Assembly (NCBI GenBank): GCA_016213085.1
Contig: JACRBU010000157.1
Location: 1,065 to 65,064 of the forward strand
Length of the DNA stretch: 64,000 bases
Origin: Coriobacteriales bacterium
Lineage (GTDB): Bacteria; Actinomycetota; Coriobacteriia; Anaerosomatales; JACRBU01
Reading direction: 5' to 3'
Below are positions 11,445 through 59,844 of the stretch, piece by piece. Position 1 is the first letter of the stretch; the number at the start of each line of letters is the position of its first letter. The translations under genes were made by a program, and so were the position numbers. The notes beneath the pieces were generated by a model. The model had not been told where the DNA came from, did no database searches, and worked only from the letters and a program-made list of their open reading frames with translations.

Positions 11445-12079
11445 GTGAGATCACCCTGGGGCGAGGGTCCGGAGTCCTCGCGCCGGCGGTTCGGCAGGAG
11501 TCCCAGTCCGATGGCAGCGAAGATGCCTGCCAGAGCAAGCAGGCCCGCGTACGACCACGGCGCGTATCGCGCGAAGAACCCGACGACCAGCCCCCATCCG
11601 ATGACGAGCGGATTGCCTCGAGCGACGCTCACGGTCAGCCGGGGACCGGCGGCGACGTTGAGGAGCGCGCCGCTCGACGAGGGTACCTGCCGGTCGGATG
11701 TTCCGAGAAGCAGCGCCCCGTAGTCGCCGGCGACAGCCGAAGCCGGCACGTCGACACGCGTGTCGAATGTCATGCTGGAATGGGGAGGGATCGTTGCGCT
11801 GGCGGGGGAGAACGTGAACCAGGACGCCTCAGGGGTCCGCACGCCCTCGACGGGTGCGACACGCATGACGTAGGTGGCTGCCACGTCTCCCGTATTGAAG
11901 ATCGTGATGGTCGGGAGTTGCTTGCTGCTCCCTGGAGTGAGCGGCTCCTCGATCGTGATCCTTCCGGTGTCGGTTCCCGCACCGATGCTCGCCGCCGACG
12001 CCATGGTCGGTGCCACCAGTGCGCAAACCATCGCGACGGTCAGTATCGATCGCATCCGGGTCCGCCTCACCGTTGCCAT
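11441..12079 (-). CDS. Secreted single beta-sandwich-like protein with a C-terminal TM anchor
   Basis: The start was reset to the ATG at 12079 (MATVRRTRMRSILTVAMVCALVAPTMASA signal peptide). The pattern LPTITIFNTGDVAATYVMRV...FTFSPASATIPPHSSMTFDTRVDVP...GDYGALLLG resembles CARDB/NEW3/DUF916-type or PapD-like sandwiches. C-terminal hydrophobic helices are followed by RRRED. Confidence 0.55.
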   Translation of the reverse strand: MATVRRTRMRSILTVAMVCALVAPTMASAASIGAGTDTGRITIEEPLTPGSSKQLPTITIFNTGDVAATYVMRVAPVEGVRTPEASWFTFSPASATIPPHSSMTFDTRVDVPASAVAGDYGALLLGTSDRQVPSSSGALLNVAAGPRLTVSVARGNPLVIGWGLVVGFFARYAPWSYAGLLALAGIFAAIGLGLLPNRRREDSGPSPQGDLT

Positions 12080-12884: not shown

Positions 12885-15507
<2,623 letters not shown>

Positions 15508-16725: not shown

Positions 16726-16799
16726 GGGGCCTCCCCTTTGTCAGACCGCGAGTCGCGAGTCGCGGCTACCGTCAGCTGCCTGCACGGTATGAGGGGCGT

Positions 16800-16815
16800 G
16801 TTTCCGTGATGTTTC
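16800..16815 (-). promoter_or_regulatory. Direct repeat GAAACA-N5-GAAACA on the gene strand, 75-90 nt upstream of amt copy 1; candidate OmpR-family (GlnR-like) box
   Basis: The plus strand reads GTTTCcgtgatGTTTC. The same arrangement occurs upstream of amt copy 2 (18657..18672). Confidence 0.35.
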
Positions 16816-16903
16816 GACGGGATTTCGCCGAGGTATCGCAAACGGGCCCCATCGCGGCGGTCGACCGCAGTGGGGCCCGTTTCTTCCTGCCGGAAGGAGC
16901 CGG

Positions 16904-17344
<441 letters not shown>

Positions 17345-18571
17345 TTACTCGAAGATGTAGCCCTCTTCCGCGTGCTCGCTGATGTCGAGACCGCGTGACT
17401 CGACCTCATCGCTCACGCGCAGGCCCATGACCATGTCGATGACCTTCAGGAAGATGATGCTCAGCACGAAGGAGAACGCCCACGCGGCGACGATGCCGAC
17501 GAGCTGGAGCACGATCTGGCTCGGGTTGCCGTAGAGAAGACCGTTGCGACCGGCCTCGTTGATGGTCGTGGTGGCGAACACGCCGGTCAGAAGCGCACCG
17601 AGGGTTCCGCCGACTCCGTGGATGCCCACCACGTCGAGGGCATCGTCGAAGCCGAACTTGCCCTTGATGAAGAGGCCGAAGTAGCAGGCGACGCCGACGA
17701 CGAGGCCGATGACGATCGCGGCCCAGGGCTCGACGTATCCGGCGGCCGGCGTGACTCCGACGAGGCCGGCGACAGCGCCGGAGGCGGCACCGAGAACGGT
17801 CGGCTTGCCGGCGTGCATGGTCTCGACGAGGGTCCAAGCCAAGAGCGCGGCGGCGGCCAGATGCGTGTTCATGAACGCCGAACCGGCGAGACCGTTCGCG
17901 GCAAGCGCCGAACCAGCGTTGAAGCCGAACCAGCCGAACCACAGGATGCCCGCGCCGAGCACCGTCATCGGCAGGTTGTGAGGGTGGATCTGGTCGGTGC
18001 CGAGGTCGCGACGCTTGCCGAGCATGATGGCAGCAGCGAGGGCGGCGGCAGCCGATGAGATGTGGACGACGGTCCCGCCGGCGAAGTCGAGCGCGCCGAG
18101 CCTGAACAGCCAGCCGTTCGTCTGCCATACCCAGTGGGCGAGCGGCGAGTAGACGAAGATCGCCCAGAGCGTCGCGAAGATGACATACGCACGAAACTTC
18201 ATGCGCTCGGCGATCGCGCCCGTGATGAGGGCGACCGTGATGATCGCGAACATCCCCTGGTACATGGCGAAGACGCTCAGCGGGATCGTCCCGAAGAGCT
18301 CGCCGTTGACGTTCATGAGCCCGGTCATGCTGAAGTCGCCGATGAACGCCGACAGCGATCCGGTGCCCTCGCCGAACGCGAGCGTGAATCCGACCAGCGC
18401 CCAGATGACCGACACCAGGCCCATGGCGAAGAAGCTGTGCATCGTGGTGGAGAGCACATTCTTCTTGCGGACCATGCCGCTATAGAACGCGGCAAGACCC
18501 GGCGTCATGAACAGCACCAGGGCCGCCGATGCGAGCATCCAGGCGGTGTCGCCTGTGTTCAGCTCAGGCAT
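17345..18571 (-). CDS. amt: Ammonium transporter (copy 2)
   Basis: The start was reset to the ATG at 18571 (MPELNTGDTAWMLASAALVLFMTPGLAAFYSGMVR), preceded by GAAGGAGGA. The track ORF runs to 19042 and is a false extension. Confidence 0.93.
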   Translation of the reverse strand: MPELNTGDTAWMLASAALVLFMTPGLAAFYSGMVRKKNVLSTTMHSFFAMGLVSVIWALVGFTLAFGEGTGSLSAFIGDFSMTGLMNVNGELFGTIPLSVFAMYQGMFAIITVALITGAIAERMKFRAYVIFATLWAIFVYSPLAHWVWQTNGWLFRLGALDFAGGTVVHISSAAAALAAAIMLGKRRDLGTDQIHPHNLPMTVLGAGILWFGWFGFNAGSALAANGLAGSAFMNTHLAAAALLAWTLVETMHAGKPTVLGAASGAVAGLVGVTPAAGYVEPWAAIVIGLVVGVACYFGLFIKGKFGFDDALDVVGIHGVGGTLGALLTGVFATTTINEAGRNGLLYGNPSQIVLQLVGIVAAWAFSFVLSIIFLKVIDMVMGLRVSDEVESRGLDISEHAEEGYIFE

Positions 18572-18656
18572 CCTCGTCCTCCTTCTCGTGCAAGTAGCCG
18601 GGGCGGTTTCAGAGCGCCCGACTGCCGACAGGTTGGGGGCAGCGTACGGACCCCTT

Positions 18657-18672
18657 GTTTCGCATGTGTTTC
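18657..18672 (-). promoter_or_regulatory. Direct repeat GAAACA-N5-GAAACA on the gene strand, 86-101 nt upstream of amt copy 2
   Basis: The plus strand reads GTTTCgcatgtGTTTC. More GAAAC/GAAAACC repeats lie at 18692-18727 in the same divergent region. Confidence 0.35.
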
Positions 18673-18857
18673 GGTGTGGTGTCGCGCCCGTGAAACCTGA
18701 AACAGCGGCGAAAACCTGCGGAAAACCCCGCCTGGCGGTCGGGGGCGGCGTCGTCCGCTGACGATGTGGAACGGTTGACGTGGGCAGCGCGCGGGAACCG
18801 TTGAGGCAAGAGTGAGATGATTCGAGTCGTACGGTATCGACGCGAGAGGGGACGGGG

Positions 18858-19364
18858 ATGAAGCGCTTCGGACTAGTGATCGCGGCACTGCTCTGCATCG
18901 CCATGGCGGCCGGACTGGTCGGCTGCCAGCAGATCGCGGAACAAGCCGCCGAGTCAGCCGCCGAGAAGGCGACCGGAACGAAGATCGACAAGGAAGGCGA
19001 CTCCATCACGATCGAGGGCAAGGAAGGGGAGAAGGCCACCATCGGGCAGGGTGAGCTCCCCGCCGACTTCCCGACAGATGCTCCGGTCTACCCGGGGGCC
19101 AAGGTCGTCGCCAGCTACGAGCAGGGGACCGGCGCGGCCAAGTCCTACGTCGTGACGTTCGAGACAGCCGACCCGGCCAGCAAGGTCAACGACTGGTACG
19201 TGACCGAGATCGAGGCTAAGGGTTGGACGATCGACACGAAGGCGAACCAGGGCGAGAACTACATCCTGAACGCAACCAAGGGCACCCAGCGTCTGGCCCT
19301 CACCATCGCCGCCGATCAGGGGCAGGCGAAGACGCTCATCAACGAGACCGTGACGCCGGAGTAG
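18858..19364 (+). CDS. Hypothetical lipoprotein
   Basis: Signal peptide with lipobox (LLCIAMAAGLVGC). 168 aa, with no domain I recognise. Confidence 0.6.
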   Translation: MKRFGLVIAALLCIAMAAGLVGCQQIAEQAAESAAEKATGTKIDKEGDSITIEGKEGEKATIGQGELPADFPTDAPVYPGAKVVASYEQGTGAAKSYVVTFETADPASKVNDWYVTEIEAKGWTIDTKANQGENYILNATKGTQRLALTIAADQGQAKTLINETVTPE

Positions 19365-19478: not shown

Positions 19479-19545
19479 AGTACCGATGCGGGGTACAATC
19501 GAACCTTGCCTGGAATCCCACTGTTTGAGTTAGGCAGGTTCGGCG

Positions 19546-47741: not shown

Positions 47742-47757
47742 ATACCCCACCCGGTAT
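47742..47757. promoter_or_regulatory. ATACCCC-N2-CCGGTAT inverted repeat overlapping the trxA -10; candidate CsoR-family operator
   Basis: ATACCCCACCCGGTAT, with TATAAT at 47755-47760 and GTGACA (-35) at 47733-47738. The left half-site is identical to that of the 48569 operator. Confidence 0.4.
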
Positions 47758-47792: not shown

Positions 47793-48116
47793 ATGAGCAA
47801 AGCGATCGACGTTTCGACCTCGACGTGGGACGCCGAGGTGGGGTCGGCAGACACACCGGTCGTCGTTGATTTCTGGGCACCCTGGTGCGGACCCTGCCGG
47901 ATGGTCGCGCCCGAGCTCGACAAGCTCTCCGGTCGGGTGGGAGACAAGGTCAAGTTCGTGAAGGTGAACATCGACGAGAACCGCGATCTTGCGGTGCGCT
48001 TCGGCGTGATGAGTATCCCGACGATCGCGATGTTCGAGAAGGGAAGCCTCGTCAAGCAAGTGGTCGGGGCGCGAGGCGCCGATGCCCTCGCGAAGGAGTT
48101 CGGCCTGGAGGGGTAG
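47793..48116 (+). CDS. trxA: Thioredoxin
   Basis: 107 aa with WAPWCGPC. Confidence 0.95.
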   Translation: MSKAIDVSTSTWDAEVGSADTPVVVDFWAPWCGPCRMVAPELDKLSGRVGDKVKFVKVNIDENRDLAVRFGVMSIPTIAMFEKGSLVKQVVGARGADALAKEFGLEG

Positions 48117-48220: not shown

Positions 48221-48520
48221 CTACTTCACGCAGGACGAGTACTTGAGGAACACTCGGATCGCCTCGTCGATGACCTCGTCCCGGGTGGTGGCCTCTTCGT
48301 CGATGAGGCATCGCTTCATCGCGTGGCCGATCACATGGAGGCCGACTTGGTTGAGTGCGGACTTCGCGGCCATCACCTGCGTGAGTATCGCGTCGCACTC
48401 CTGCCCGGACTCGATCATCGACTGAAGGCCACGGATCTGACCCTCGAGGCGTCGGAGACGATTGATGATCTTGCGGCGCTCGGCGTCGTCGACGATGGGT
48501 GTGATGCTTTCGGGTGCCAT
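48221..48520 (-). CDS. CsoR/RcnR/CstR-family (DUF156) metal- or thiol-sensing repressor
   Basis: 99 aa with RKIINRLRRLEGQIRGLQSMIE...ECDAILTQVMAAKSALNQVGLHVIGHAMKRCL. Two Cys lie 29 residues apart. Confidence 0.88.
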   Translation of the reverse strand: MAPESITPIVDDAERRKIINRLRRLEGQIRGLQSMIESGQECDAILTQVMAAKSALNQVGLHVIGHAMKRCLIDEEATTRDEVIDEAIRVFLKYSSCVK

Positions 48521-48568: not shown

Positions 48569-48585
48569 ATACCCCCTAGGGGTAT
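48569..48585. promoter_or_regulatory. Perfect inverted repeat ATACCCC-CTA-GGGGTAT in the csoR/CDF divergent region (CsoR-type operator)
   Basis: Seen directly. The G/C-tract palindrome flanked by ATAC/GTAT matches the general form of published CsoR operators. Confidence 0.6.
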
Positions 48586-48587
48586 CA

Positions 48588-49553
48588 GTGACAAACTGGT
48601 GGTGCAGCTTGGGCTACACGCGTTCCATAGGTGAAGATGTCGCATCCGCGCGGATCTCACGGATCCGTCGCATTCTCGCGATCATCCTCGGCCTCAATCT
48701 GATGGTGGCGTTCGCCAAGCTCGGATGGGGCGTTGCCACGGGGTCGAGCGCCATGCAGGCCGACGGCTTCCACTCGCTTTTCGACGGGACGAGCAATGTC
48801 GTAGGGCTCATCGGCATGGGGCTCGCCGCACGCCCTGCCGACAAGGACCACCCCTACGGGCACAGCAAGTACGAGACGTACGCGTCCGCCGCCATCGGAG
48901 CCATGCTGGTCTTCGCCGCGTTCAGGATCGGATCCGAAGCGATCCAGAAGCTCAGCGGCGATGCGCCTCCCCCCACGGTGGACCGAATCTCGTTCGCGGT
49001 GATGTTCGTCACGCTCGCGGTGAACCTGGTCATCACCGTCTGGGAGCGCAGGATCGGCAAGAAACTGAAGAGCGAGATCCTCGTCGCCGATGCGAGCCAC
49101 ACGGCGTCCGATGCCTTCGTGAGCGTCGGAGTCATCATCTCCCTGGTGTTCGTCCAGCTCGGCTACCCAAAGGCCGACCCGATCGTGGCCCTGCTGGTTT
49201 CGGGCGCGATCATCTACACCGCCTGGGGCGTCTTCAAGCAAGCGGGGGAGACCCTGTCCGACCGGTACCGCATCGAGCCGTCAGCGATCTGCGACGCTGC
49301 TTCCGGAGTCGACGGCGTGCTGGGGTGTCACCACGTGAGAACGCGCGGTTCTGAGGCGGAGGTCTACGTCGACCTGCACATCCAGGTGGATCCCGGGCAG
49401 ACCGTGGCGGAGGGCCACGACATCGCCGAGCGAGCTGAGCGCGCGATCTGCGACGCCTTCCCCAACGTGGCCGACGTGATCGTGCACCTCGAGCCGATGG
49501 ATACATACCAGGCGGCCAAGACCGCCCGAGAAGCCGACGCGGGCCTGGCGTAG
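48588..49553 (+). CDS. Cation diffusion facilitator (CDF) metal efflux protein
   Basis: Motifs SSAMQADGFHSLFD and HTASDAFVS, six TM helices and a C-terminal cytoplasmic domain. The GTG at 48588 abuts the operator and has no SD, so the in-frame TTG at 48609 is a more plausible start. Confidence 0.88.
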   Translation: MTNWWCSLGYTRSIGEDVASARISRIRRILAIILGLNLMVAFAKLGWGVATGSSAMQADGFHSLFDGTSNVVGLIGMGLAARPADKDHPYGHSKYETYASAAIGAMLVFAAFRIGSEAIQKLSGDAPPPTVDRISFAVMFVTLAVNLVITVWERRIGKKLKSEILVADASHTASDAFVSVGVIISLVFVQLGYPKADPIVALLVSGAIIYTAWGVFKQAGETLSDRYRIEPSAICDAASGVDGVLGCHHVRTRGSEAEVYVDLHIQVDPGQTVAEGHDIAERAERAICDAFPNVADVIVHLEPMDTYQAAKTAREADAGLA

Positions 49554-49652
49554 CGCCCTCTCGGCGGCCTCGCTGGGACGCGTGAGCTGGCCGGTGGGTG
49601 GTATAATTCTTGCTGTGCAAGCCGTCCGCTTCGGGTGCGAGGAGGGGTCACA

Positions 49653-51050
49653 GTGGAACTGCAACAGCGCCCCGAACTGCGCCAGAAAGTCACGCTCTCT
49701 CCCCAGGTCTACCAGGGCCTGAGTATCCTGGCGATGCCCATCGCCGATCTGCAGCAGATGATCGAAGTCGAGATGCTCGAGAACCCTGTTCTCGAGGTCG
49801 ACGAAACCGAACTCGAGCCGGTCGAAGGCGAGGAAGCCCCGGAAGAGGCTGGCGAGGACGACCGCGAGTGGGACGAGTGGCTCGAGATGTACGAGGATCT
49901 CGAGCAGATCGAGACGACGGGTCCACGCGACCCGAACGCCGAGGAGCCCAACACCGAGGAGTTCGTCGGCGGCGTACAGACCTTCGATGACTACCTTCTC
50001 GGCCAGGTCGGCCTTCTCGATGTCGAGCCAGAAGTCCAGCGCGCCGCCGCTGCGATCATCGGCTCCCTCGACAGCGACGGCTTCTTCGTCGGCTCTCTCG
50101 ACGAGATCGCTCGGGTCGCCGGCGTGACGTCGGTCCAGGCTGCCGAGGGGCTCGAGGTCGTGCAGCAACTCGACCCGCCCGGCGTCGGCGCTCGCGACCT
50201 CGTCGAGGCCCTGTGCCTGCAGATGGAATCGCTCGGCCTCGACGAGCCGATGCTTCTGCGCATCGTCCGAGATCACCTCGACGACGTCGCCGCCAACCAC
50301 TACCGCAAGGTCGCGAGGGCGCTGCGCCTCGACGAGGGCGAGGTGCGACGCCTTGTGCAGGTGCTCAAGAGCCTCAACCCGCGGCCGGCCGGTGCGTTCT
50401 CCCCGGGTCCTTCCCCGGGCTACATCGTCCCTGACGTGACGGTCAGGCGCTTCGAAGGTGAGGACTGGCTTCTCATCCCGAACAACGAGTCGCTCCCAAC
50501 ACTGCGGGTGAGTCCCCGGTATCGGGCGATGCTGAAGAAGGGCGCCACGACCGACGACGAAACCAAGCGCTACCTGAAGGACAAGATCCGTTCGGCGGAG
50601 AGCTTCATCCGCAATGTCGATCGGCGCAAGGACACGGTCTCTCGCATCACGCAGATCATCCTCGAGGTGCAGCGTGACTTCTTCGAGGACGGGAAGGGCC
50701 CGCTGCGTCCGCTTCGTCTCGAGGACGTGGCCGTTGAGCTCGGCGTGCACCTGTCGACCGTTTCTCGCGGCGTGACCGGCAAGTACATGGCGACGCCCTA
50801 CGGCCTCTTCGAGCTGAAGCACTTCTTCAGCGGCGGGTACCGTACGGCGCAGGGCATGGACGTGGCGGCGACCAGCATCAAGCAGCGTCTGCGTGAACTC
50901 GTGAAGGAAGAGGATGCCGTCAAGCCGCTTTCGGACCAGAAGCTCGCAGAGCTGCTCTCCGAAGAGGGCGTGACAGTCGCCCGGCGCACCGTTGCGAAGT
51001 ACCGCGAGGAACTCGGCATTGAGCCCAGTTGGGCAAGGCGCCGCCGATGA
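49653..51050 (+). CDS. rpoN: RNA polymerase sigma-54 factor
   Basis: GTG at 49653 preceded by GGAGGGG. Gln/Leu-rich region I (LRQKVTLSPQVYQGLSIL), an acidic region II, a core-binding region, an HTH and the RpoN box ARRTVAKYREELGI. TGgTATAAT lies at 49599-49607. Confidence 0.92.
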   Translation: MELQQRPELRQKVTLSPQVYQGLSILAMPIADLQQMIEVEMLENPVLEVDETELEPVEGEEAPEEAGEDDREWDEWLEMYEDLEQIETTGPRDPNAEEPNTEEFVGGVQTFDDYLLGQVGLLDVEPEVQRAAAAIIGSLDSDGFFVGSLDEIARVAGVTSVQAAEGLEVVQQLDPPGVGARDLVEALCLQMESLGLDEPMLLRIVRDHLDDVAANHYRKVARALRLDEGEVRRLVQVLKSLNPRPAGAFSPGPSPGYIVPDVTVRRFEGEDWLLIPNNESLPTLRVSPRYRAMLKKGATTDDETKRYLKDKIRSAESFIRNVDRRKDTVSRITQIILEVQRDFFEDGKGPLRPLRLEDVAVELGVHLSTVSRGVTGKYMATPYGLFELKHFFSGGYRTAQGMDVAATSIKQRLRELVKEEDAVKPLSDQKLAELLSEEGVTVARRTVAKYREELGIEPSWARRRR

Positions 51051-52570
51051 GTCCCGATTCGGTCGAGCGAGCCCCTCGCGGCGAGCCTTCCGACGAGCGC
51101 AGAAGACGACGGGCTCGTGACGTTCGCTCGGTGACGATCATCGCGGTCCTGCTGCTCTCGGTGACGATGATCAACATCTTCACGAGCACGAGGGGCCAGG
51201 CAACGTGGCTGAGCGTCTTCTACCGGCAGCTCTACTACATTCCGATCGTGTATGCAGCATTCGTGTTCGGCAAGCGTGGTGGTCTCCTGGCGGCGCTCGC
51301 TGCGGCCATCCCGTTTGGGATCCACGCTCAGGTCTCGCTCGGCGGGCTTCTCAATCCCCCCTACGAGAACTCGATAGAGATCGCCATGTACTTCGCCGCC
51401 GGGCTGCTCTTCGGCATGCTCCGAGACATGGAGAACACCAAGGCGGCTGATTCGCGCGCGGTGTCACAGCAGCTCGAGGAGGCCTACAAGAAGCTCGAAG
51501 AGCGGGCGATCCAACTCATCAACATCCAGGACTACATGCAGTCGATACTGCGTTCTATCACGTCAGGCGTGTTGACGGTCGGACCGGACGGGTCGGTCGC
51601 GACGGCGAATCCCGCCGCCGAGCGGATGCTCGCGATGTCCGAATACGAGATGGTCCCCAAACCCATCGGCACGCTCTTCCGTGAGGATGGCGGCATCGCG
51701 ACCGACGTGTCGAAGGTCCTTGCCGGACGCCTCCCGTTGACACTGCGGGAGATAACGCTCGTGACGAGCTCGGGCAAGGAGGTGCACGCGCAGGTCTCTG
51801 TGTCTCGCATGCGCGCCGTTGGCGGGAAGATCCTCGGGGCGGTCGTGACCCTTGAGGACGTCTCCGACATCCGCGCACTCACAGACCAGCTCATCCGCGC
51901 GGACCGCTTGGCAGCCATGGGCGAACTGACCGCGGGTGTCGCCCACGAAGTGCGCAACCCCCTGGGGGTTATCAGGGCCTCGGTCCAGCTGCTTGAGGAC
52001 GCCGAATACAATAGCGAGCGGATCCACGAGGCGGCCGAGGTCATCAAGCAGGAGATAGATCGTCTCGACCGCGTCATCAAGGCGCTGCTGGACTTCGGCA
52101 GGCCGAGCAAGCCTACGCTCGTACGCACGAACGTCGAAGAGGTGCTGCAGGACGTCGAGTTGTTCACGAACCGATTCGCGAAGCAGTCCGACGTGCGCAT
52201 CATCGAGGAGTTCGCCGGCAACCTTCCGGACGTGGTCGCCGACCCCGATCAGATGAAGCAAGTGTTCCTCAACCTCGTCACCAACGCCGTCCAGGCGATG
52301 GAGGACACCGGGGGAGGGGAGATCATGCTTCGCACCCGGTCCAACGGTGACTTCGTGACGGTCGAGGTTGCCGACAACGGCCCGGGGATTCTACAGGCTG
52401 ACGTCGGGAAGGTCTTCGATCCGTTCTTCACGAAGCGAGCGGAAGGCACGGGGCTCGGCCTGACGATCGTCCATCGAATCATCGATGAGCACGACGGGCA
52501 TATCGAACTGGACAGCTCACCGCAGGGGACTACGTTCACGGTCTCTCTGCCGGTTGCGCTCGAAGACTAG
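51047..52570 (+). CDS. Membrane sensor histidine kinase (multi-TM N-domain, PAS, HisKA, HATPase)
   Basis: The ATG at 51047 overlaps the rpoN stop (ATGA). H-box AHEVRNPLG, with DNGPGI and GTGLGL boxes. Confidence 0.9.
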   Translation: MSPDSVERAPRGEPSDERRRRRARDVRSVTIIAVLLLSVTMINIFTSTRGQATWLSVFYRQLYYIPIVYAAFVFGKRGGLLAALAAAIPFGIHAQVSLGGLLNPPYENSIEIAMYFAAGLLFGMLRDMENTKAADSRAVSQQLEEAYKKLEERAIQLINIQDYMQSILRSITSGVLTVGPDGSVATANPAAERMLAMSEYEMVPKPIGTLFREDGGIATDVSKVLAGRLPLTLREITLVTSSGKEVHAQVSVSRMRAVGGKILGAVVTLEDVSDIRALTDQLIRADRLAAMGELTAGVAHEVRNPLGVIRASVQLLEDAEYNSERIHEAAEVIKQEIDRLDRVIKALLDFGRPSKPTLVRTNVEEVLQDVELFTNRFAKQSDVRIIEEFAGNLPDVVADPDQMKQVFLNLVTNAVQAMEDTGGGEIMLRTRSNGDFVTVEVADNGPGILQADVGKVFDPFFTKRAEGTGLGLTIVHRIIDEHDGHIELDSSPQGTTFTVSLPVALED

Positions 52571-52581
52571 GGGAGGTACGG

Positions 52582-53931
52582 ATGTCGAAGCGCGTCCTTA
52601 TCGTGGACGACGAGAAGAACATGCGGTGGGTGCTGGGCCAGGCGCTCTCGGGCGAGGGTTTCGAGGTCGTCGACGCGGCGGACGGCAAAGGCGCCCTCGC
52701 CTCCGTCTCCGACCAGGCGCCCGACATCATGATCCTCGATCACCGCATGCCCGAACCGGACGGGATGGAGGTCCTGCGCCGGGTGCGCGGGAAGGGCCAG
52801 ACGTTCCCGATCATCATGCTCACGGCTCACGGCAACGTCGCCCAAGCGGTCGAGGCGATGAAGGCTGGCGCGAACGAGTACCTCACGAAGCCATTCGACC
52901 TGGAGGAACTCAAGCTCGCGATCGACAAGGCCCTCCAGTACTCCGATCTGGCCAACGAGGTCGAGAGACTTCGCCAGGAGCTCGACCGGGAGTACGACGT
53001 CGAGGGCATCGTCGCGTCGGACCAGCGGATGATCGAGGTCATCGAGACCGTTCGGAAGGTGGCGCCCACGAACGCCACGGCGATCATCTACGGTGAGTCC
53101 GGCACGGGCAAGGAGCTGATCGCCCGCGCTCTGCACAACCTCTCGGACCGGGCCAACAAGCCGTTCGTGTCCGTGAGCGCTGGAGCGCTGCCCGACACCC
53201 TTCTCGAGAGCGAGCTCTTCGGCTTCGAAAAGGGCGCGTTCACCGGCGCGGTGACCGCCAAACCGGGTCGCTTCGAGATGGCCAACGGCGGCACGCTGTT
53301 CCTTGACGAGATCGGCGACATCTCTACGGCCACGCAAGTGAAGCTCCTTCGAGTCCTGCAGGAGCGGACGTTCGAGCGCCTCGGCGGCACTCGCACGATC
53401 GACATCGACGTCCGGGTGGTAGCAGCCACGAATCAGGACCTCCAACAGCTCATCGCCGATGGCGGTTTCCGCGAGGACCTCTACTACCGTCTCAACGTCG
53501 TGCCGATCACGCTGCCGCCTCTCAGGCAGCGTTCAGGTGACATCCCGCTCCTCGTCGCTCACTTTCTCGAGAAGTACAACGCCGGGAGCATGCGGATCAC
53601 CCCCGAGGCCATGGAAGCGCTCGTGACCTACCAGTGGCCGGGGAATATCCGCGAACTCGAGAACAGCATCGAGCGGATCGTGATCTTGACCCACCACGAC
53701 GAGATCGGATTGGATGACCTCCCCGCCGAGGTACGAGCGGGCATGTCACCCACCCAGCGGATGCCCTCCGGATTCCAGCTTCCCGAGGATGGAGTGGATC
53801 TCGAGGAGGTTGAGCTGGACCTGGTGCGTCAGGCCCTCGACAGGACCGGCGGTAGCGCCCCGAAGGCGGCCAAGCTACTGGGGCTGACGGCGAAGACTCT
53901 GGAGGCGCGTATGGCGCGTCTCGGGCTCTAG
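52582..53931 (+). CDS. Sigma-54-dependent response regulator (NtrC family: REC, AAA+, Fis-type HTH)
   Basis: REC domain (ILIVDDE...ILDHRMP), Walker A GESGTGKE, the GAFTGA loop (EKGAFTGAV) and a C-terminal HTH (AAKLLGLTAKTLEARM). Confidence 0.93.
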   Translation: MSKRVLIVDDEKNMRWVLGQALSGEGFEVVDAADGKGALASVSDQAPDIMILDHRMPEPDGMEVLRRVRGKGQTFPIIMLTAHGNVAQAVEAMKAGANEYLTKPFDLEELKLAIDKALQYSDLANEVERLRQELDREYDVEGIVASDQRMIEVIETVRKVAPTNATAIIYGESGTGKELIARALHNLSDRANKPFVSVSAGALPDTLLESELFGFEKGAFTGAVTAKPGRFEMANGGTLFLDEIGDISTATQVKLLRVLQERTFERLGGTRTIDIDVRVVAATNQDLQQLIADGGFREDLYYRLNVVPITLPPLRQRSGDIPLLVAHFLEKYNAGSMRITPEAMEALVTYQWPGNIRELENSIERIVILTHHDEIGLDDLPAEVRAGMSPTQRMPSGFQLPEDGVDLEEVELDLVRQALDRTGGSAPKAAKLLGLTAKTLEARMARLGL

Positions 53932-53961: not shown

Positions 53962-53977
53962 TGGCACATGGATTGCA
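53962..53977 (+). promoter_or_regulatory. Sigma-54 promoter TGGCAC-ATGGA-TTGCA (consensus -24/-12)
   Basis: Exact match to TGGCAC-N5-TTGCA, 30 nt after the EBP stop and 42 nt before the GTG at 54019. GGAG lies 8 nt before the start. Confidence 0.75.
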
Positions 53978-54018
53978 CTCTTCAGCGCCCGTAGGACGCT
54001 AACGAACGGAGTCGCCGC

Positions 54019-54354
54019 GTGGCCAGAAAGCCGCTGCTCAGAATCGCTGCAGCAGCCCTTGGCGGGCTTGCTGTCGCCACGGTGCTCCTCGCTATCACCC
54101 TCGTCGTCAACGCGGGCGGCGGTTTCTCGGGAACGACCGCTGCCACGCCGCTTGGCTGGACGATCCCGCTCATCGCGGGGGTTCTCGTCGGCGGCCTCGC
54201 GTGGCTGCTTCTCTCGGACCGACCGGCGCGCGGTGGGAGGGAGAACCCTCCCACGTCGATCGCGTGCGCATCATGCGGCAAGGCCTGCCTCGACTCGTGG
54301 CGCCTGTGCCCCTTCTGCGGCACGCTGCTCCGACAGTCCAGCGGCGACCAGTAG
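54019..54354 (+). CDS. Small two-TM membrane protein with a C-terminal zinc-ribbon (CxxC...CxxC)
   Basis: 111 aa with two hydrophobic helices followed by CASCGKACLDSWRLCPFCG. Confidence 0.6.
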   Translation: MARKPLLRIAAAALGGLAVATVLLAITLVVNAGGGFSGTTAATPLGWTIPLIAGVLVGGLAWLLLSDRPARGGRENPPTSIACASCGKACLDSWRLCPFCGTLLRQSSGDQ

Positions 54355-54401
54355 GGCCAGCCGAGATCTTCTCATTCATCGCGCTGAATCAGGCGCACCT
54401 C

Positions 54402-54417
54402 TGGCACGTACTTCGCA
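54402..54417 (+). promoter_or_regulatory. Second sigma-54 promoter TGGCAC-GTACT-TCGCA
   Basis: GG-N10-GC is preserved, with one mismatch in the -12 element. It shares the extended CCTCTGGCAC with the first promoter. It lies 62 nt before the GTG at 54479, which is preceded by GAGGA. Confidence 0.6.
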
Positions 54418-54478
54418 GAAACCGACGTGTACGCGGTCGCGTCCGTGCGCCCGCTGGTGCTCGGAACTTGAGGACTGA

Positions 54479-54925
54479 GTGAACGTCACGAAGGACAGCA
54501 GCACTGAATCGGCCTATCGCGAGGGACTCGGCTATGGCGGGCAGTCCGTCGCGGTAGCGGTCGCTTCCGCGCTCCTGCTGTTCACCGTGGTCGGCCTCGT
54601 CGCGTCGCGGACGTCCGTCCGCCTCGGTTCCGCCTCGTGGGGGACGTCGCGCGGAGTCGCCATCGGTGTGCCGGCCTCGCAGGCACGGGCCCTCGAGCCT
54701 GTCGTTCAGACGATCGATGCCCCTCAACTCAACGGCGACAGTCTCAACGGCAGCTTCATGCTCACGGTCCCCGCACGCCGAGAGGTGCTCGTCGACATCG
54801 GTGTACCGGTGTCGTGTCCCGGCGGCGGGAAGTCCACCGCGATTCTCATCCCAGCTCTCGAGCCCGGTCATCACGTCCTCAACGTCGGCCTTCACGAGAT
54901 TGTTGTCACCGCGGTGGAGGAGTAG
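54479..54925 (+). CDS. Hypothetical N-terminally anchored extracytoplasmic protein
   Basis: 148 aa with a TM helix (VAVAVASALLLFTVVGLVA) followed by a beta-rich domain. No domain I recognise. Confidence 0.45.
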   Translation: MNVTKDSSTESAYREGLGYGGQSVAVAVASALLLFTVVGLVASRTSVRLGSASWGTSRGVAIGVPASQARALEPVVQTIDAPQLNGDSLNGSFMLTVPARREVLVDIGVPVSCPGGGKSTAILIPALEPGHHVLNVGLHEIVVTAVEE

Positions 54926-54932
54926 CCCGAAA

Positions 54933-54948
54933 ATACCGTATGGGGTAT
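54933..54948. promoter_or_regulatory. ATACC-N4-GGGGTAT inverted repeat overlapping a TATACT -10 upstream of ccdA; candidate CsoR-family operator
   Basis: ATACCGTATGGGGTAT, with TATACT at 54946-54951. A second partial site, GATACCCCCT at 54964-54973, is identical to the left arm of the 48569 operator. Confidence 0.35.
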
Positions 54949-54988
54949 ACTGAGACCGCCCTGGATACCCCCTCGGAATGCGAGTGAC

Positions 54989-55717
54989 ATGACCAGCTCC
55001 GTGAGTCTTGGTGCCGCGTTCGTCGCAGGACTGCTGTCGTTCCTCTCTCCATGCGTGCTCCCGCTGATTCCCGCGTACCTGTCGTTCATGACGGGCTTGA
55101 CCACAGCCGAACTGGCCGGCAACGAGCGCCCGACCGCGAAGATCCTGACCGCTGCGGTGCTCTTCGTCGCCGGTTTCTCGATCGTGTTCGTTGGTCTGGG
55201 CGCCTCGGCATCGGTCCTCGGGGGCTTCCTGGATGCCTACAGGGACCTGATCACGAGAGTGTTCGGGGTGCTGGTGATCGCGTGCGGCGTCCTGATGCTC
55301 GGGGTGATCAGGGTTCCGTGGCTCTACGGTGAGATGCGGCCCGACATGAATCGTGCGAGTTCGTTCGGCACGTGGGCGGCTCTGGTCATGGGCATGGCGT
55401 TCGCCGCCGGTTGGACGCCGTGCGTGGGACCGATCCTCGGCGTGATCCTGGGGCTCGCCGGTTCGTACGGCAGCGCGTCTGCGGGAGCGCTGCTCCTGCT
55501 GGCGTATTCGCTTGGACTGGGGATCCCGTTCATCGCGGTGGCTGCGCTGTTCGGCAGCGCGAGGCCGCTCCTGCGCTGGCTCGGACGGCACAGCCTGGTG
55601 ATCAATCGGGTCGCCGGCTCGGTCCTCATCGCAGTCGGGCTGCTGCTTGTGACGGGCCAGTTCGGGTTCGTCGCGAGCTGGCTGTCCAGCGTGCTGCCAA
55701 AGACCTCGCTCGGTTAG
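54989..55717 (+). CDS. ccdA: Cytochrome c biogenesis / thiol-disulfide electron transporter CcdA (DsbD family)
   Basis: 242 aa with LSFLSPCVLPLIPAYLSF and a second conserved Cys (GWTPCVGPILG). Confidence 0.9.
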   Translation: MTSSVSLGAAFVAGLLSFLSPCVLPLIPAYLSFMTGLTTAELAGNERPTAKILTAAVLFVAGFSIVFVGLGASASVLGGFLDAYRDLITRVFGVLVIACGVLMLGVIRVPWLYGEMRPDMNRASSFGTWAALVMGMAFAAGWTPCVGPILGVILGLAGSYGSASAGALLLLAYSLGLGIPFIAVAALFGSARPLLRWLGRHSLVINRVAGSVLIAVGLLLVTGQFGFVASWLSSVLPKTSLG

Positions 55718-55804: not shown

Positions 55805-58800
55805 ATGAGCCAGGAGCGGCGTCGTGGTCGCACGATAGCGACCGACATCGTCCAGGTGACGCTTGTGGTCGGCATCGTGATAGCCGTTGCCGCCGCGATC
55901 GTCGGGGTTACCGGCGCATCTAGGCTGGCCAGCGCGGAAGTGGTGTCGCAGCAGCGCGCGGGCATGCATCGCGTTGAAGACACCGCCGAGGTGCAGATCG
56001 CCGCGGCGGGTGTGATCGTCGAGCAAACCGCGGGCGCCGTGGGCGCCGCGAAGGACGTGAGCAGCGCCGCACAGCTCACCAAGTCGCTTGCAGGCTCCGA
56101 CGGAGCTCTCGAGTCTCTCACCCTCCTGGACGCGAACGGCAGGCCCCTGGGGTCCCGGGCCTCGTCGAACACCGAGAGGATTCCCCGCTCGATACTCGAG
56201 AGTTTCGCGCGTGCGTCTGCAAGTATCGTCGTTCAGGACACAGGCACGGACGGGACGCCGAATGTCTGGATCGCGCGCACGTCGATCATACGGTCCGGAG
56301 ACCCGGTCCTCGTGCTCGGCAAGGTCGACACTTCCTTCCTGACGAGCCTTGTCAGGGAGGCGGCTGCCGAGCAGCCCGGAAGCGCAGTACTGGTGATCGG
56401 ACCCGGCGGGCACATCGAGGCTGCCGCCGGTCCCGAACTCGATCTCGGCCGGGCGAAATGGACGCGCAGCGGTCGTGACGGCGTCGTGACCGCCAGGGCG
56501 ACGAACGGAACCCCGATGTCGGGGCTGTACACCCCCATCCACGGCATACCTGGGCTGAACTGGCGTGTCGCGCTCGTCCAGCCCCGCTCCGCGGTGGTTT
56601 CCGCGACCTTCCAGGCGGTCGGGCCCTCGATCGGCGTGCTCATACTCGGCGGACTCGTCGCACTCGCGATCGCCTGGGTCATCTCCGCGCAGCTCTCCGA
56701 CCCGCTGCGCTCGCTCGAGGAAGCCGCGTATCGTGCCGCCGAGGGGTCGTACGTGAAGCCGCTCAAGGCGGATCGCGACGACGAGGTCGGTCGGCTGGCC
56801 GATGCCTTCAACGCGGTCGCGATGAGACTCAACGCGCTACACGATCTCTCGCAGCTGCTGGCGAGCAGCACCCACCTCGATCAGGTGCTCGACGGCATCC
56901 TATCGGCGATGGAACACATCATCGGACCGGGTATCACGGCGATCTACCTGCTGGATGACTCGCGAGACCTTCTGAAGCCCGTGAGGGCCCACGGCGCGCA
57001 GCTTGACGTGCTGCCCTGCATGCCGGCGAGGGGAGAGGGATGGATCATCGAAGCGCTTTCGGCCATCGAGCCGCGGGTCGTGACGGGGCTTCCTGGCAGG
57101 CTTCGTGAGATTCTCCCGGGGCTCGCGCCCGAGCAGGCCCGCGAAGCGATCGCCATCCCGCTCGTGAGCGGCTACGAGGCGATCGGCGTGATCGTATACG
57201 TCTCCGAGTCGGAACGCGGGTTCACCGAAGCCGAGACCGAGATGCTGCGCACGTTCGCCGCCCAGGCCGCCGTGGCCGTCAACAACTCGAGGATGTTCGC
57301 GGAGGAGGGTGAGTCCCGGGAGATCGCGGAGACCCTCCAGGCCGTGGCCGAGGACCTGGTGGGCGCTGGCAACCTCGGCGAGGCGCTCGAGTCGGTCGTC
57401 GTGCGATTGCGCGATCTCTTCGGGGCGCGTGAGGTCCAGATCGCCTTCGTGGACCGGGCGTCCCTCGGGATGCCACCTTCGTTCGATCCGGCGCGCGAGG
57501 ATGCGCTCGTCACGATGGCGATCCGGACGCTGGCGCTCGGCGAGGCCGACTCGCCGACGACCATCCCGAAGGGTGTCGACGCCGAAGCCGATGCGCTCCT
57601 CGACCGCCATGGCGCATCGGAGCTGTTGGTCGTTCCGACGGGCATGTCCAGCGGACACGGCGCCGTGCTTGTGGTCGTGCCCGGTCCCGGGGGCGTGAGG
57701 CCGAGGGACATCGAGCTCGCGGACGCGGTGTCGGACGAGATCGCTCTCGCACTCGACAACGCCTACTTCTACGAGCGCGCGATCACGCGCGCCTCGAACC
57801 TCGAGACGATCTTCAGGATCAGCCAGGCGCTGAGCTCCTCGCTGCAGTTCAACATCGTGCTCAACCGCGTGCTCGACGTGGTCCAGAAGATCTTCTCTGC
57901 GGACGCGGTGTGGTTGCTCACGTACGATCGCCCGCGGCGCGTGCTTCGCACGGAGATGGCCCGCGGCACCGTGTCCTCGGAGATCCTCGATCTGTCCCTT
58001 CGGCCGGGTGAGGACGTCTTCGGATTCGTCTACGAGAGCGGCGAACCAGGCACGTTCCGTTCGATCGCACCGGACAGCGCCGGCGTACAGAGGATCGCGT
58101 ACTCCCTCGGGCTGAGGGCGATGCTGGCCGTCCCGCTTCTCGCTCGAGGTCGCTCTATCGGAGTGCTGGCGATCCTGTCGTCCGAGCAGAACGCGTTCTC
58201 CGACGAGGATCTCAGCGTGCTTCAGACCTTCGCGGCCCAAGCGTCGCTGGCGATCGACACCGCACGCCTCTACAGCCACGAGCACGAAGTCGCGACGATC
58301 CTCCAGCGCAGCATCACCCCCGAGGCGCTTCCGGAACTCGCCGAAGTGGAGACGGGCTCGGTCTACGTGCCGGTGGGGCCGGACAGCGAGATCGGCGGCG
58401 ACTACTACGACATGATGCGCGCCCCGGACGGGTCGATCGTCTTCGCCATCGGCGACGTGGTCGGCAAGGGCATCATCGCCGCCACCAAGACATCGATGAT
58501 CAAGTACTCGGTGCGGGCGCTTGTCGCTGCGGGGCTCGGTCCCGCGTTGGTCCTGCGAGAAGTCAACCGCATGGTCGCCGAGTCCGGAGACGCGGGCGAC
58601 ATCGTCACGCTGTGGCTCGGCCAATACGATTCGACCACCCGTCGGCTGAGATGGGCGAGTGGAGGACATCCCCCGGGGCTGAGCCTGCGGGCGCAGGGTG
58701 GAATCGAGCCGCTCGTGGCCACCGGGCCTCTCTTGGGAGTCATGCCCGATGTCGACTACGATGAGGAGTCTGTGTCTGTCGACCCCGGGGACACGGTCCT

Positions 58801-59071
58801 CCTCTACACCGACGGTGTCACCGAGGCCCGCGCTGGCTCGAAGTTCTTCGGGGAGGAGCAGGTACGCCGTACGCTCGAGGCGGGCGGGACGTGCGAGGAT
58901 ATCGTTCAACGTTTGATGGCTGCTGTCCGATTGTTTGCAGAAGGAGACCTGCGCGACGACGTTGCCATCGTGGCTGTACGTTTCACCGGTCGGGTCTCGA
59001 ATACAGCCGAAATCGGGACGGTGGACTCGACCGTACGAGGGGAATCTTCAGAAGCATGGCCTTCGACATAG
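55805..59071 (+). CDS. Membrane-bound sensor phosphatase: extracytoplasmic domain, HAMP, multiple GAF domains, PP2C/SpoIIE
   Basis: 1088 aa with two TM helices flanking a region of about 250 aa. HAMP (DEVGRLADAFNAVAMRL), GAF-like repeats, and a C-terminal SpoIIE domain (GGDYYD, GDVVGKG, YTDGVTEA). Confidence 0.88.
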   Translation: MSQERRRGRTIATDIVQVTLVVGIVIAVAAAIVGVTGASRLASAEVVSQQRAGMHRVEDTAEVQIAAAGVIVEQTAGAVGAAKDVSSAAQLTKSLAGSDGALESLTLLDANGRPLGSRASSNTERIPRSILESFARASASIVVQDTGTDGTPNVWIARTSIIRSGDPVLVLGKVDTSFLTSLVREAAAEQPGSAVLVIGPGGHIEAAAGPELDLGRAKWTRSGRDGVVTARATNGTPMSGLYTPIHGIPGLNWRVALVQPRSAVVSATFQAVGPSIGVLILGGLVALAIAWVISAQLSDPLRSLEEAAYRAAEGSYVKPLKADRDDEVGRLADAFNAVAMRLNALHDLSQLLASSTHLDQVLDGILSAMEHIIGPGITAIYLLDDSRDLLKPVRAHGAQLDVLPCMPARGEGWIIEALSAIEPRVVTGLPGRLREILPGLAPEQAREAIAIPLVSGYEAIGVIVYVSESERGFTEAETEMLRTFAAQAAVAVNNSRMFAEEGESREIAETLQAVAEDLVGAGNLGEALESVVVRLRDLFGAREVQIAFVDRASLGMPPSFDPAREDALVTMAIRTLALGEADSPTTIPKGVDAEADALLDRHGASELLVVPTGMSSGHGAVLVVVPGPGGVRPRDIELADAVSDEIALALDNAYFYERAITRASNLETIFRISQALSSSLQFNIVLNRVLDVVQKIFSADAVWLLTYDRPRRVLRTEMARGTVSSEILDLSLRPGEDVFGFVYESGEPGTFRSIAPDSAGVQRIAYSLGLRAMLAVPLLARGRSIGVLAILSSEQNAFSDEDLSVLQTFAAQASLAIDTARLYSHEHEVATILQRSITPEALPELAEVETGSVYVPVGPDSEIGGDYYDMMRAPDGSIVFAIGDVVGKGIIAATKTSMIKYSVRALVAAGLGPALVLREVNRMVAESGDAGDIVTLWLGQYDSTTRRLRWASGGHPPGLSLRAQGGIEPLVATGPLLGVMPDVDYDEESVSVDPGDTVLLYTDGVTEARAGSKFFGEEQVRRTLEAGGTCEDIVQRLMAAVRLFAEGDLRDDVAIVAVRFTGRVSNTAEIGTVDSTVRGESSEAWPST

Positions 59072-59844
59072 ACTTCGAAATCGGCTCGGACACGTGCGTG
59101 GCTCGGCTTGCGGGTGATATCGACATCGCGGTCGTGCCGGCGTTGCGGGCAGACATGGACGCTGCCCTCGAGGCGGGCTGCCGAAGCGTCGTGCTGGACT
59201 TGAGCGATGTCGCCTACGCCGACAGCTCGGCTCTTGGGCTTCTGGTCTGGCTCGATCATCGCCTCAGGCCGGTCGGCGGCCGGCTCGTGCGGGCCGGAGC
59301 CAACGATGACGTCGCCCGCATCCTCGAGCTCTCAGGGCTTGTCCAGGTAGCCGCATCGGTTCAGATGAGTTCGTCTGTGGCCTCGGCGCTCGAAGGGCTG
59401 CAACTTCCCGAGCTCGCGCATGAACCGCTCTGGAGCAAGAGCATCGACATGGTCGCCGCGGTCGAGAACCTCGGATCGGTGCGCGAGGAGGTCGTCGCGA
59501 TCCTCGGCTCCCTCGGCTTTGCCGACTCGGCGCTCTTCGACATCAAGGTCGCGCTCGGAGAGGCGCTGGCGAACGCTGTCCGCCATGGGGCCCCTGCCGA
59601 TGGCTCCGGCGAGGTCCGTGTCGAAGTCGTCGCGTATGACGACCGGATCGTGCTCGAGGTCATGGACAACGGGATCGGCTTCAACGGGCAGCACGCCGGC
59701 AGTGACGACGTCTATGCACCCTCGGGGCGCGGCATCATGTTCATGCGCGCGTTGATGGATCGGGTCGAGTTCGACCACTCGCCGCTCGGCGGCACCAAGG
59801 TGCGGCTCGTCAAGCACCGTCCTGTCGCCGGCGCGCCTCGCTGA
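59056..59844 (+). CDS. Fusion of a STAS anti-sigma-antagonist domain and an RsbW-like HATPase anti-sigma kinase domain
   Basis: The ATG at 59056 overlaps the phosphatase gene by 16 nt. The STAS domain (VLDLSDVAYADSSALGLLV) is followed by the kinase domain (ALGEALANAVRHG...DNGIGF...GRGIMFMRALMD). Confidence 0.8.
   Translation: MAFDIDFEIGSDTCVARLAGDIDIAVVPALRADMDAALEAGCRSVVLDLSDVAYADSSALGLLVWLDHRLRPVGGRLVRAGANDDVARILELSGLVQVAASVQMSSSVASALEGLQLPELAHEPLWSKSIDMVAAVENLGSVREEVVAILGSLGFADSALFDIKVALGEALANAVRHGAPADGSGEVRVEVVAYDDRIVLEVMDNGIGFNGQHAGSDDVYAPSGRGIMFMRALMDRVEFDHSPLGGTKVRLVKHRPVAGAPR

Follow-up and report, generated by a model that had tools for sequence, protein, structure and literature searches.

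Tandem sigma-54 promoters beside an rpoN-kinase-activator gene set in a Coriobacteriales genome, a probable circuit for soft-metal and thiol-damage defence

A 64,000-nucleotide stretch of contig JACRBU010000157.1 from a Coriobacteriales bacterium (assembly GCA_016213085.1), here called the window, encodes in succession sigma-54 (rpoN), a sensor histidine kinase and an enhancer-binding activator, and two sigma-54 promoter motifs, termed P1 and P2, are placed directly past the activator gene. Comparison with related loci makes it likely that P1 and P2 are functional promoters of a compact circuit built from these three proteins, with defence against copper or soft metals and against thiol damage as its most likely output. 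The parts of the circuit and the first gene after each promoter are as follows.

49653-51050, + strand: rpoN (sigma-54), likely start codon GTG at 49653 after GAGGAGG, with the mechanical open reading frame (ORF) starting at 49635.
51029-52570, + strand: sensor histidine kinase with a DUF4118-like N-terminal membrane domain, PAS, HisKA and HATPase domains.
52582-53931, + strand: NtrC-family enhancer-binding response regulator (receiver, AAA+ and HTH_8 domains), the activator, with GAFTGA and Walker motifs intact.
53962-53977, + strand: P1, sigma-54 promoter TGGCAC-ATGGA-TTGCA, predicted transcription start at about 53988.
54019-54354, + strand: ZnR, a 111-residue protein with two transmembrane helices and a Cys4 zinc ribbon, encoded by the first gene past P1 in every locus.
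54402-54417, + strand: P2, sigma-54 promoter TGGCAC-GTACT-TCGCA, predicted transcription start at about 54428.
54479-54925, + strand: p148, an N-terminal transmembrane anchor followed by a beta domain, putatively a divergent Cupredoxin_1-like protein, with invariant His-131, His-132 and His-139.

Both promoter motifs read exactly, in position, sequence and strand, as in the initial annotation, which had been made from the letters of the window. Within the pattern TGGCAC-N5-TTGCW, which contains the GG-N10-GC core, P1 matches 11 of 11 specified bases and P2 matches 10 of 11. Allowing at most one mismatch, TGGCACN5TTGCA is found on both strands of the 64 kb at P1 and P2 only, with 0.38 matches expected, and a consensus ranking of the whole window that required GG and GC places P1 first, P2 second and a site 5' of rpoN, termed P0, third. 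The extended motif proposed earlier for both promoters, CCTCTGGCAC, is present at these two sites only (0.17 expected), and the part of it that did not hold is the CCTC extension, for which conservation is absent in relatives. P1 and P2 are both intergenic and are placed 30-60 nt 5' of ribosome-binding sites. The activator gene stops at 53931, and P1 is followed by a GGAG ribosome-binding site and the GTG at 54019 that opens a 111-codon ORF, with P2 followed by a GAGGA site and the GTG at 54479 that opens a 148-codon ORF.

The comparison set consists of about 16 related loci from uncultured Coriobacteriia, with 256 kb of orthologous clade sequence among them, collected by an activator-based genome scan and by exact-protein look-ups that included contigs of 2.5 and 2.67 Mb. 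The activator scan returned nine orthologous loci at 75-80% identity, all from metagenome-assembled genomes (MAGs) labelled by different groups as Coriobacteriia, Actinomycetota or Actinobacteria. Synteny is the same in at least 10 MAGs from independent studies, with contigs of 0.6-2.7 Mb among them. The shared gene order runs PHP - ferrochelatase(-) - trx - (DUF302) - csoR-like(-) - CDF - (EamA) - rpoN - kinase - activator - ZnR - copZ - variable slot - ccdA and continues with genes for a SpoIIE phosphatase, a STAS/HATPase protein and a monogalactosyldiacylglycerol (MGDG) synthase. The locally wired circuit of rpoN, kinase and enhancer-binding protein read earlier from the window is supported by these loci, with P0 added to it 5' of rpoN.

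On both strands of the 256 kb the pattern TGGCA[CT]N5T[TC]GCA occurs 18 times, and all 18 occurrences are P1 or P2 on the gene strand. The claim that two sigma-54 promoters directly follow the activator gene is sustained, with P1 (TGGCA[CT]-N5-TTGCA) present in 14 of the 14 loci that cover its position, 6-90 bp past the activator stop codon, and P2 (TGGCA[CT]-N5-TCGC[AG]) found in 9 of 16 loci. Neither promoter changes position or strand between loci, and every P2 has TCGC at -12. The P2 of locus L005 is a variant reading CGGCAC...TCGCT. Within the -24 and -12 elements, alignment columns show 90-100% identity, against background values in the spacer and flanks, and the GG and GC elements are invariant across loci whose flanks have fully diverged. 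Two additional loci have P0, P1 and P2 all at the same positions. As far as sequence can decide the matter, this conservation is the decisive evidence that P1 and P2 are real sigma-54 promoters.

That the motifs are instead non-functional sigma-54 sites or chance matches, with the small ORFs expressed by read-through from the rpoN operon, is very improbable. In its favor, 5 of 100 shuffles of the window reach two or more matches to TGGCACN5TTGCA at up to one mismatch, and E. coli sigma-54 is said to bind many inactive sites. The retention of position, strand and GG/GC at P1 and P2, the 18 of 18 motif occurrences and the intergenic placement of both sites ahead of ribosome-binding sites argue against it. 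The main gap in the promoter case is the enhancer, or upstream activating sequence (UAS), and its absence from the search results also counts for non-functional sites. No UAS common to P0, P1 and P2 was found by four approaches, which covered perfect and near-perfect inverted repeats 5' of the three sites, gapped dyad enrichment in 29 upstream regions, P1 and P2 upstream regions matched within each genome, and synonymous-site conservation along the activator gene measured as third-codon-position entropy. The words that recurred in these searches are coding sequence of the zinc ribbon or HTH only. Any UAS of P1 must fall within the activator's own coding sequence, and coding sequence 5' of both P1 and P2 masks any UAS signal. 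P2 is also missing from 7 of the 16 loci, which likewise counts against the proposed circuit.

Among the loci without P2, the ZnR-copZ gap is just 0-26 bp in L010, L012 and L014, and P1 alone must therefore drive ZnR and copZ in these three, and in L014 ccdA as well. The four other P2-less loci have a ZnR-copZ gap of about 90-116 bp in which the sigma-54 motif is absent. On the + strand of the window, the stretch from 47.6 to 56 kb contains no predicted intrinsic terminator, so transcripts from P1 probably run on through P2 into the downstream genes. The proposal that each promoter drives one small protein is consequently too simple.

The position of P2 is best understood from the relatives. 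In those that cover the position, ZnR is always followed by copZ, which encodes a 72-73-residue HMA protein with the sequence G(M/L)HCxSC, and the MxCxxC motif is conserved in the copZ-type HMA proteins of the relatives. P2 precedes copZ in every P2-bearing locus except the window, where the ZnR-p148 gap is 124 bp and tblastn finds no copZ at the locus. P2 directly precedes p148 in the window because copZ has been lost, and by gene order P2 is ancestrally the promoter of this metallochaperone gene. The next slot contains a membrane-anchored PF13473 Cupredoxin_1 protein of 166-173 residues in L008, L087/L088 and L090, contains p148 in five contigs including the window, and is empty in several loci. 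L005 has a DsbD_2-Cupredoxin_1 fusion (10389-11693) directly past ZnR under P1, and the L005 CopA has three HMA domains with CPC, YN and MxxSS signatures, which we take to be those of Cu(I) pumps of the P1B-1 type. A functional link of the cupredoxin-like slot proteins to DsbD/CcdA-type membrane proteins is suggested by this fusion and, elsewhere, by p148 or cupredoxin genes that adjoin ccdA; L087, which has no ccdA, weighs against it. The copZ genes, PF13473 proteins and Cu-type CopA of the relatives, with a Myxococcus xanthus precedent described below, are what the probable assignment to copper stands on. Envelope or thiol-redox stress, the output suggested by the initial annotation, is compatible with this gene content, and the copZ and cupredoxin genes in relatives point more specifically to soft-metal (copper) homeostasis and thiol repair.

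The p148 sequence is identical to the hypothetical protein HY876_08590 of a 'Coriobacteriales bacterium' MAG. Its AlphaFold2 model contains one transmembrane helix (residues ~20-45), in agreement with the N-terminal anchor recognised earlier, and an eight-strand beta domain, and the charge pattern around the helix is compatible with either side of the membrane for this domain. BLASTP aligns p148 with the PF13473 slot cupredoxin of L008 (E=5e-5, 35% identity) over the last 46 residues, up to both C termini (L008 ELPALEVGEYGFSCGMEMVFGTLIAE; p148 LIPALEPGHHVLNVGLHEIVVTAVEE). With a p148 profile hidden Markov model (HMM) run against 10,282 six-frame ORF fragments, the L008 cupredoxin is the top non-member (E=0.037), and an eight-sequence alignment of p148 with the slot cupredoxins is colinear with one 13-residue deletion in p148. 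A Foldseek search of the p148 model against the PDB gave nothing below E=0.2, and the non-significant list is mostly cupredoxins and cytochrome oxidase subunit II. An invariant PGHH...H motif (His-131, His-132 and His-139) occupies the place of the cupredoxin Cys/Met ligands. From these alignments p148 is probably a fast-evolving derivative of the slot cupredoxin in which the Cys/Met ligands have been replaced. Searches for a wider p148 family gave no NCBIfam match, no PDB sequence match at E<=10, nothing from a metagenome scan with the p148 alignment and, from an HMM scan of 1.84 billion representatives, four true members and otherwise repetitive low-complexity proteins only. The statement that the small proteins match no recognised family is retained for p148 with regard to Pfam and is modified by its probable kinship to the slot cupredoxin.

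The first gene after P1 encodes ZnR, which is identical to the hypothetical protein HY876_08585 of the same-named 'Coriobacteriales bacterium' MAG. Its two transmembrane helices and C-terminal zinc ribbon, as outlined in the initial annotation, are accompanied by a basic N terminus and a short conserved loop (TPLGWTIP) on the outer side, and the ribbon is cytoplasmic. The ribbon has the motif CxxCG-x7-(W)RxCPxCG, reading WRxCPxCG in the window, and its four cysteines are invariant in 13 aligned orthologues despite identities of 31-74%. The p148 and ZnR families are both very small: among 5.8 billion sequences, a word-indexed search gave five proteins for p148 and six for ZnR. Substitutions in both ORFs fall at the third codon position more than the first and at the first more than the second, with many synonymous changes; by this pattern both ORFs are under purifying selection, and conservation in relatives, the test set for them earlier, is borne out at the protein level. 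With a membrane hairpin and a cytoplasmic Cys4 site, ZnR could, speculatively, be a co-sensor or feedback element for the kinase. A perfect hairpin with a 9-bp stem (GTGGGAGGG-AGAA-CCCTCCCAC, 54233-54254, + strand) is located inside the ZnR coding sequence and is unconserved in relatives. In L090 (14288-14771) the ZnR gene is present, yet the public record of the 2.5 Mb genome OW818687.1 does not annotate it, showing that the family is under-annotated. The start of the L004 contig (1-170) is chimeric, with a second copy of the stretch coding for the p148 N terminus joined to the tail of the ZnR gene, and is probably an assembly artefact.

A second regulatory layer surrounds the sigma-54 genes, formed by a CsoR/CstR-family repressor and its putative operators.

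48221-48520, - strand: CsoR/CstR-family repressor, PF02583 E=2e-24, both cysteines invariant.
47742-47757, + strand: CsoR-type operator ATACCCCACCCGGTAT inside the thioredoxin promoter (GTGACA-16-TATAAT), with trx at 47793-48116.
48569-48585, no strand assigned: CsoR-type operator ATACCCCCTAGGGGTAT between csoR and the CDF transporter gene (48588-49553).
54933-54951, + strand: CsoR-type operator ATACCGTATGGGGTAT overlapping the TATACT -10 element 5' of ccdA.
54989-55717, + strand: ccdA, encoding a DsbD_TM thiol-disulfide membrane transporter (Pfam, NCBIfam).

The operators are ATACCCC-N3/4-GGGGTAT palindromes over the -10 elements of trx, csoR/CDF and ccdA, and they occur at the same positions in relatives, with the ccdA palindrome and -10 element also present in L001-L004, L008, L009, L012, L013 and L090. 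Published CsoR-family sites have the same operator form and overlap -10 elements (PMC10318464). By these signals ccdA has its own CsoR-type operator and promoter. A degenerate second operator copy, ATACCCCCTCGGAAT (54963-54977, + strand), is placed between the ccdA -10 element and the start codon. A palindrome at 19481, 5' of uvrA, was judged a chance match and not a CsoR-type operator. In the window the CsoR-controlled CDF gene runs directly into P0 and rpoN. L005, L007 and L011 have no CDF gene after csoR, and the L005 operator is directly between csoR and rpoN. CsoR-type derepression could by this arrangement feed basal expression of the sigma-54 module. As both cysteines are kept and the His position is Ala as in CstR, the effector of the repressor could be Cu(I) or a reactive sulfur or thiol species.

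The principal alternative accepts the promoters as real and takes their output to be defence against thiol, persulfide or envelope-redox stress and not against copper. The kinase PAS domain would sense a membrane or redox perturbation, ZnR and p148 would be envelope or redox accessories, and the CopZ of relatives would buffer thiophilic ions or redox state in a general way. We regard this alternative as unlikely, and several observations nevertheless favor it or detract from the assignment to copper. The residue of the repressor at the canonical Cu(I)-ligand His, four before the second Cys, is Ala, with Ser in most orthologues. The aligned structures 4M1P and 4ADZ carry His at this position and the CstR structures 7MQ1 and 7MQ3 carry Ala, giving a fingerprint here of C-A-C and not C-H-C; a His or Tyr is found one residue before the canonical ligand position. 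Thioredoxin and ccdA are under the CsoR-type operators. The kinase lacks cysteine, an extracytoplasmic domain and a His-rich metal site, and is thus not an obvious metal sensor. The window locus has neither copZ nor copA, and its link to metal comes from the relatives and from the weak homology of p148. For p148, Cys/Met ligands of the cupredoxin type are missing (where L008 has SCGMEM, p148 has NVGLHE), PF13473 is not matched even at E<=1 with only a chance Pfam match at E 0.16, hhalign against single cupredoxin sequences gives a probability below 2%, and the AlphaFold2 model is of low confidence, with a predicted local distance difference test score of 59 overall and 70-82 in the last strands. 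Against the thiol alternative, the sigma-54-driven genes include those of copZ-type HMA proteins with MxCxxC, PF13473 cupredoxins and the L005 P1B-1 Cu(I)-type ATPase, and sulfurtransferase, persulfide dioxygenase and SQR (sulfide:quinone oxidoreductase) genes are all absent from the locus.

Under the favored assignment to copper or soft metals and thiol damage, a membrane or cytoplasmic stress signal would lead the kinase, which may sense it indirectly, to phosphorylate the activator, and the AAA+ domain of the activator would open the sigma-54 holoenzyme complexes waiting at P1 and P2. P1 would transcribe ZnR, and the cascade would also raise the slot protein and, through read-through, ccdA. 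P2 would be a booster promoter of the metallochaperone slot, which holds copZ with a cupredoxin or a Cu-type CopA in relatives, and in the window the deletion of copZ would leave P2 to drive p148 directly. P0 would perhaps be fired by the same cascade, and the CsoR/CstR-type repressor, gating trx, the CDF exporter gene and ccdA, would act alongside the sigma-54 circuit. The promoter motifs and their conservation, the genes present and the intact state of the catalytic and recognition motifs are observed directly. Activation by the local activator is what we infer here, and what triggers the circuit, which metal it answers to and what ZnR and p148 do are proposed in the same sense.

The protein components of the circuit appear complete. 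The rpoN product, 465 residues in the NCBI record, contains the Pfam AID, CBD and DBD domains, scores 402 bits on TIGR02395 (cut-off 277) and has an intact RpoN box, ARRTVAKYR. The rpoN genes are already annotated in public MAG records, and rpoN genes of the clade are frequent in metagenomes, the best 120 matches listed all being clusters at 78-88% identity. The kinase N terminus forms a compact multi-helix membrane domain, with weak DUF4118/MASE1 matches, that leads into the PAS domain. Orthologues of the activator (75-87% identity) are confined to Coriobacteriia/Actinomycetota MAGs, and the next best matches, at up to 52%, are from other phyla. Among NCBIfam models the activator scores 400 bits on ZraR (cut-off 760) and the kinase 202 bits on ZraS (cut-off 479), both below threshold, and the best models for the two proteins, AtoC and AtoS, are likewise under their cut-offs.

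Upstream of rpoN a further element resembles a sigma-54 promoter.

49599-49614, + strand: P0, sigma-54-like element TGGTATAATTCTTGCT, matching TGGTAY-N5-TTGCW.

P0 is positioned 46 bp past the CDF stop codon and about 39 nt 5' of the likely rpoN start (GTG 49653). It could be either an activator-dependent promoter giving positive autoregulation or a sigma-54 site overlapping a sigma-70 promoter, and its presence suggests a circuit that regulates itself. A real, if not the favored, possibility is that P0 does not depend on the activator, and that rpoN, kinase and activator are transcribed from the sigma-70 extended -10 promoter TGGTATAAT, with the overlapping sigma-54 site acting, if at all, as a negative autoregulatory site and P1 and P2 as the only activated outputs. 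This would fit the -24 half of P0, which doubles as an extended -10 element (TGnTATAAT, TATACT or TATATT) in the window and most relatives and is weakened as a -24 element by a C-to-T change at the fourth position, and it would fit L011, where GATAAT alone is kept at the P0 position and the TTGC element is lost. Negative autoregulation of rpoN through sigma-54 sites that overlap the promoter is also known in proteobacteria. An activator-dependent P0 is supported by the single occurrence of TGGTAY-N5-TTGCW in the window, at P0, with 0.01 expected, and by the presence of a P0 equivalent 5' of rpoN in 12 of 13 loci with TTGCW at exact sigma-54 spacing. These include L005, L012 and L017, which keep TTGCT beside would-be -10 elements that are poor (TACGGC, TACGTA or TACGCT).

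A more far-reaching proposal, tentative and on balance doubtful, is that sigma-54 acts here as a single-purpose stress sigma factor in the manner of the extracytoplasmic function (ECF) family. Its regulon would be P0, P1 and P2 only, served by one kinase and one activator transcribed together with rpoN and self-amplifying through P0, and ZnR, tethered to the membrane, would be a Cys4 co-sensor or feedback element for a kinase that lacks its own sensor domain. If true, the locus would amount to the bare minimum of a sigma-54 system, complete in itself, in a phylum described as lacking this factor. A related arrangement is reportedly exemplified in Rhodobacter/Cereibacter by an RpoN paralogue with a cognate activator. 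The likeness is an rpoN dedicated physically, and probably functionally, to a local regulon; the Rhodobacter/Cereibacter paralogues are extras beside a general sigma-54, whereas the copy here is perhaps the sole one.

One of the two closest precedents is the M. xanthus CorSR system with its curA copper-resistance operon (PMC3707914). CorSR depends on sigma-54, and the copper operon under its control encodes a cupredoxin_1 protein and CopA and contains four internal sigma-54 promoters. The CorSR system and the present circuit have in common an NtrC-type two-component system encoded inside the cluster that it controls, several internal sigma-54 promoters, and a cargo with Cupredoxin_1 (PF13473) and CopA. 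They differ in that CorS has a periplasmic sensor domain and HAMP whereas the kinase here is membrane-embedded with PAS, in that the M. xanthus cluster has no rpoN, with ZnR, copZ and ccdA unlisted in that operon, and in the host, M. xanthus being a diderm member of the proteobacteria that has many activators. The other precedent, the zinc and envelope-stress system ZraPSR (HydHG) of E. coli, is likewise a sigma-54-dependent two-component system for metal and envelope stress, is autoregulated, and resembles the locus in having one small envelope accessory protein as its main output. In contrast with the window, ZraS senses via a periplasmic domain, zraP is divergently transcribed and not in tandem, ZraP, a soluble chaperone of the periplasm, has no relation to ZnR or p148, and the Zra equivalog cut-offs are unmet here.

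At the level of individual proteins, the membrane-anchored cupredoxin CupA is a copper chaperone of Streptococcus pneumoniae. p148 resembles CupA and Cupredoxin_1 proteins in its N-terminal transmembrane anchor with a small beta-sandwich and in its location, in relatives, beside copper chaperone or exporter genes, and differs from them in the missing Pfam match and Cys/Met ligands, the 13-residue deletion and the PGHH...H motif. The repressor is like the CsoR/CstR family in its PF02583 domain and in the GC-rich TAC...GTA pseudo-palindromic operators over -10 elements, and is unlike the Cu(I)-sensing CsoR in its C-A-C fingerprint and in its targets, which are trx, the CDF exporter gene and ccdA and not copZA.

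Metal and envelope genes governed by sigma-54 two-component systems have precedents in ZraPSR and CorSR. What is new is the host phylum, the co-operonic arrangement of rpoN with kinase and activator directly 5' of the targets, and the lineage-restricted ZnR and p148 families. Surveys describe the Actinomycetota as effectively without sigma-54 (PMC12316311, PMC3162934), and one of the two suggests that high GC makes sigma-54 promoters hard to recognise. The GC content of this lineage is 64-69%, yet a complete rpoN is present, and the locus is a clear counter-example to the reported absence. A literature search found no paper tying sigma-54 to Coriobacteriia or OPB41. The locus also offers a very compact natural sigma-54 circuit with wiring that can be read from the sequence, and makes ZnR and p148 candidate parts of metal and thiol-stress defence in subsurface anaerobes.

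The genes past ccdA encode a HAMP-GAF-GAF-SpoIIE phosphatase, a STAS-HATPase_c_2 protein and an MGDG-type glycosyltransferase. The ccdA, phosphatase and glycolipid synthase genes named in the initial annotation are all confirmed by Pfam and NCBIfam, and the STAS-HATPase gene was missing from that list. The HAMP-GAF-GAF-PP2C phosphatase and the STAS/anti-sigma-kinase fusion (55805-59844, + strand) constitute a partner-switching module that is strictly syntenic past ccdA clade-wide, and may be a further signalling layer of the island.

Elsewhere in the window, no credible sigma-54 promoter was found for glnD and two ammonium transporter genes (12885-19042), which in proteobacteria belong to the classical targets of sigma-54. 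The Psp system was rejected as an identity for the circuit, given the receiver domain of the activator and the absence of a PspA-like gene from the window. The only P-type ATPase in the window (~3157-5529) was rejected as a member of the circuit, being ArsR-linked, with a GLD-x-PDC motif and no sigma-54 or CsoR-type site nearby. The gene for this ArsR/SmtB-linked P1B-type ATPase (3157-5529, + strand) contains a single in-frame TGA at 3427-3429. Rfam identifies one tRNA only in the window and no tRNA-Sec, and the hairpin 3' of the TGA folds no better than shuffled sequence (z=-0.08). The TGA is located exactly at the expected first Cys of the HMA motif G-L-D-[C]-P-D-C and could represent selenocysteine (UxxC), a pseudogene or a sequencing error.

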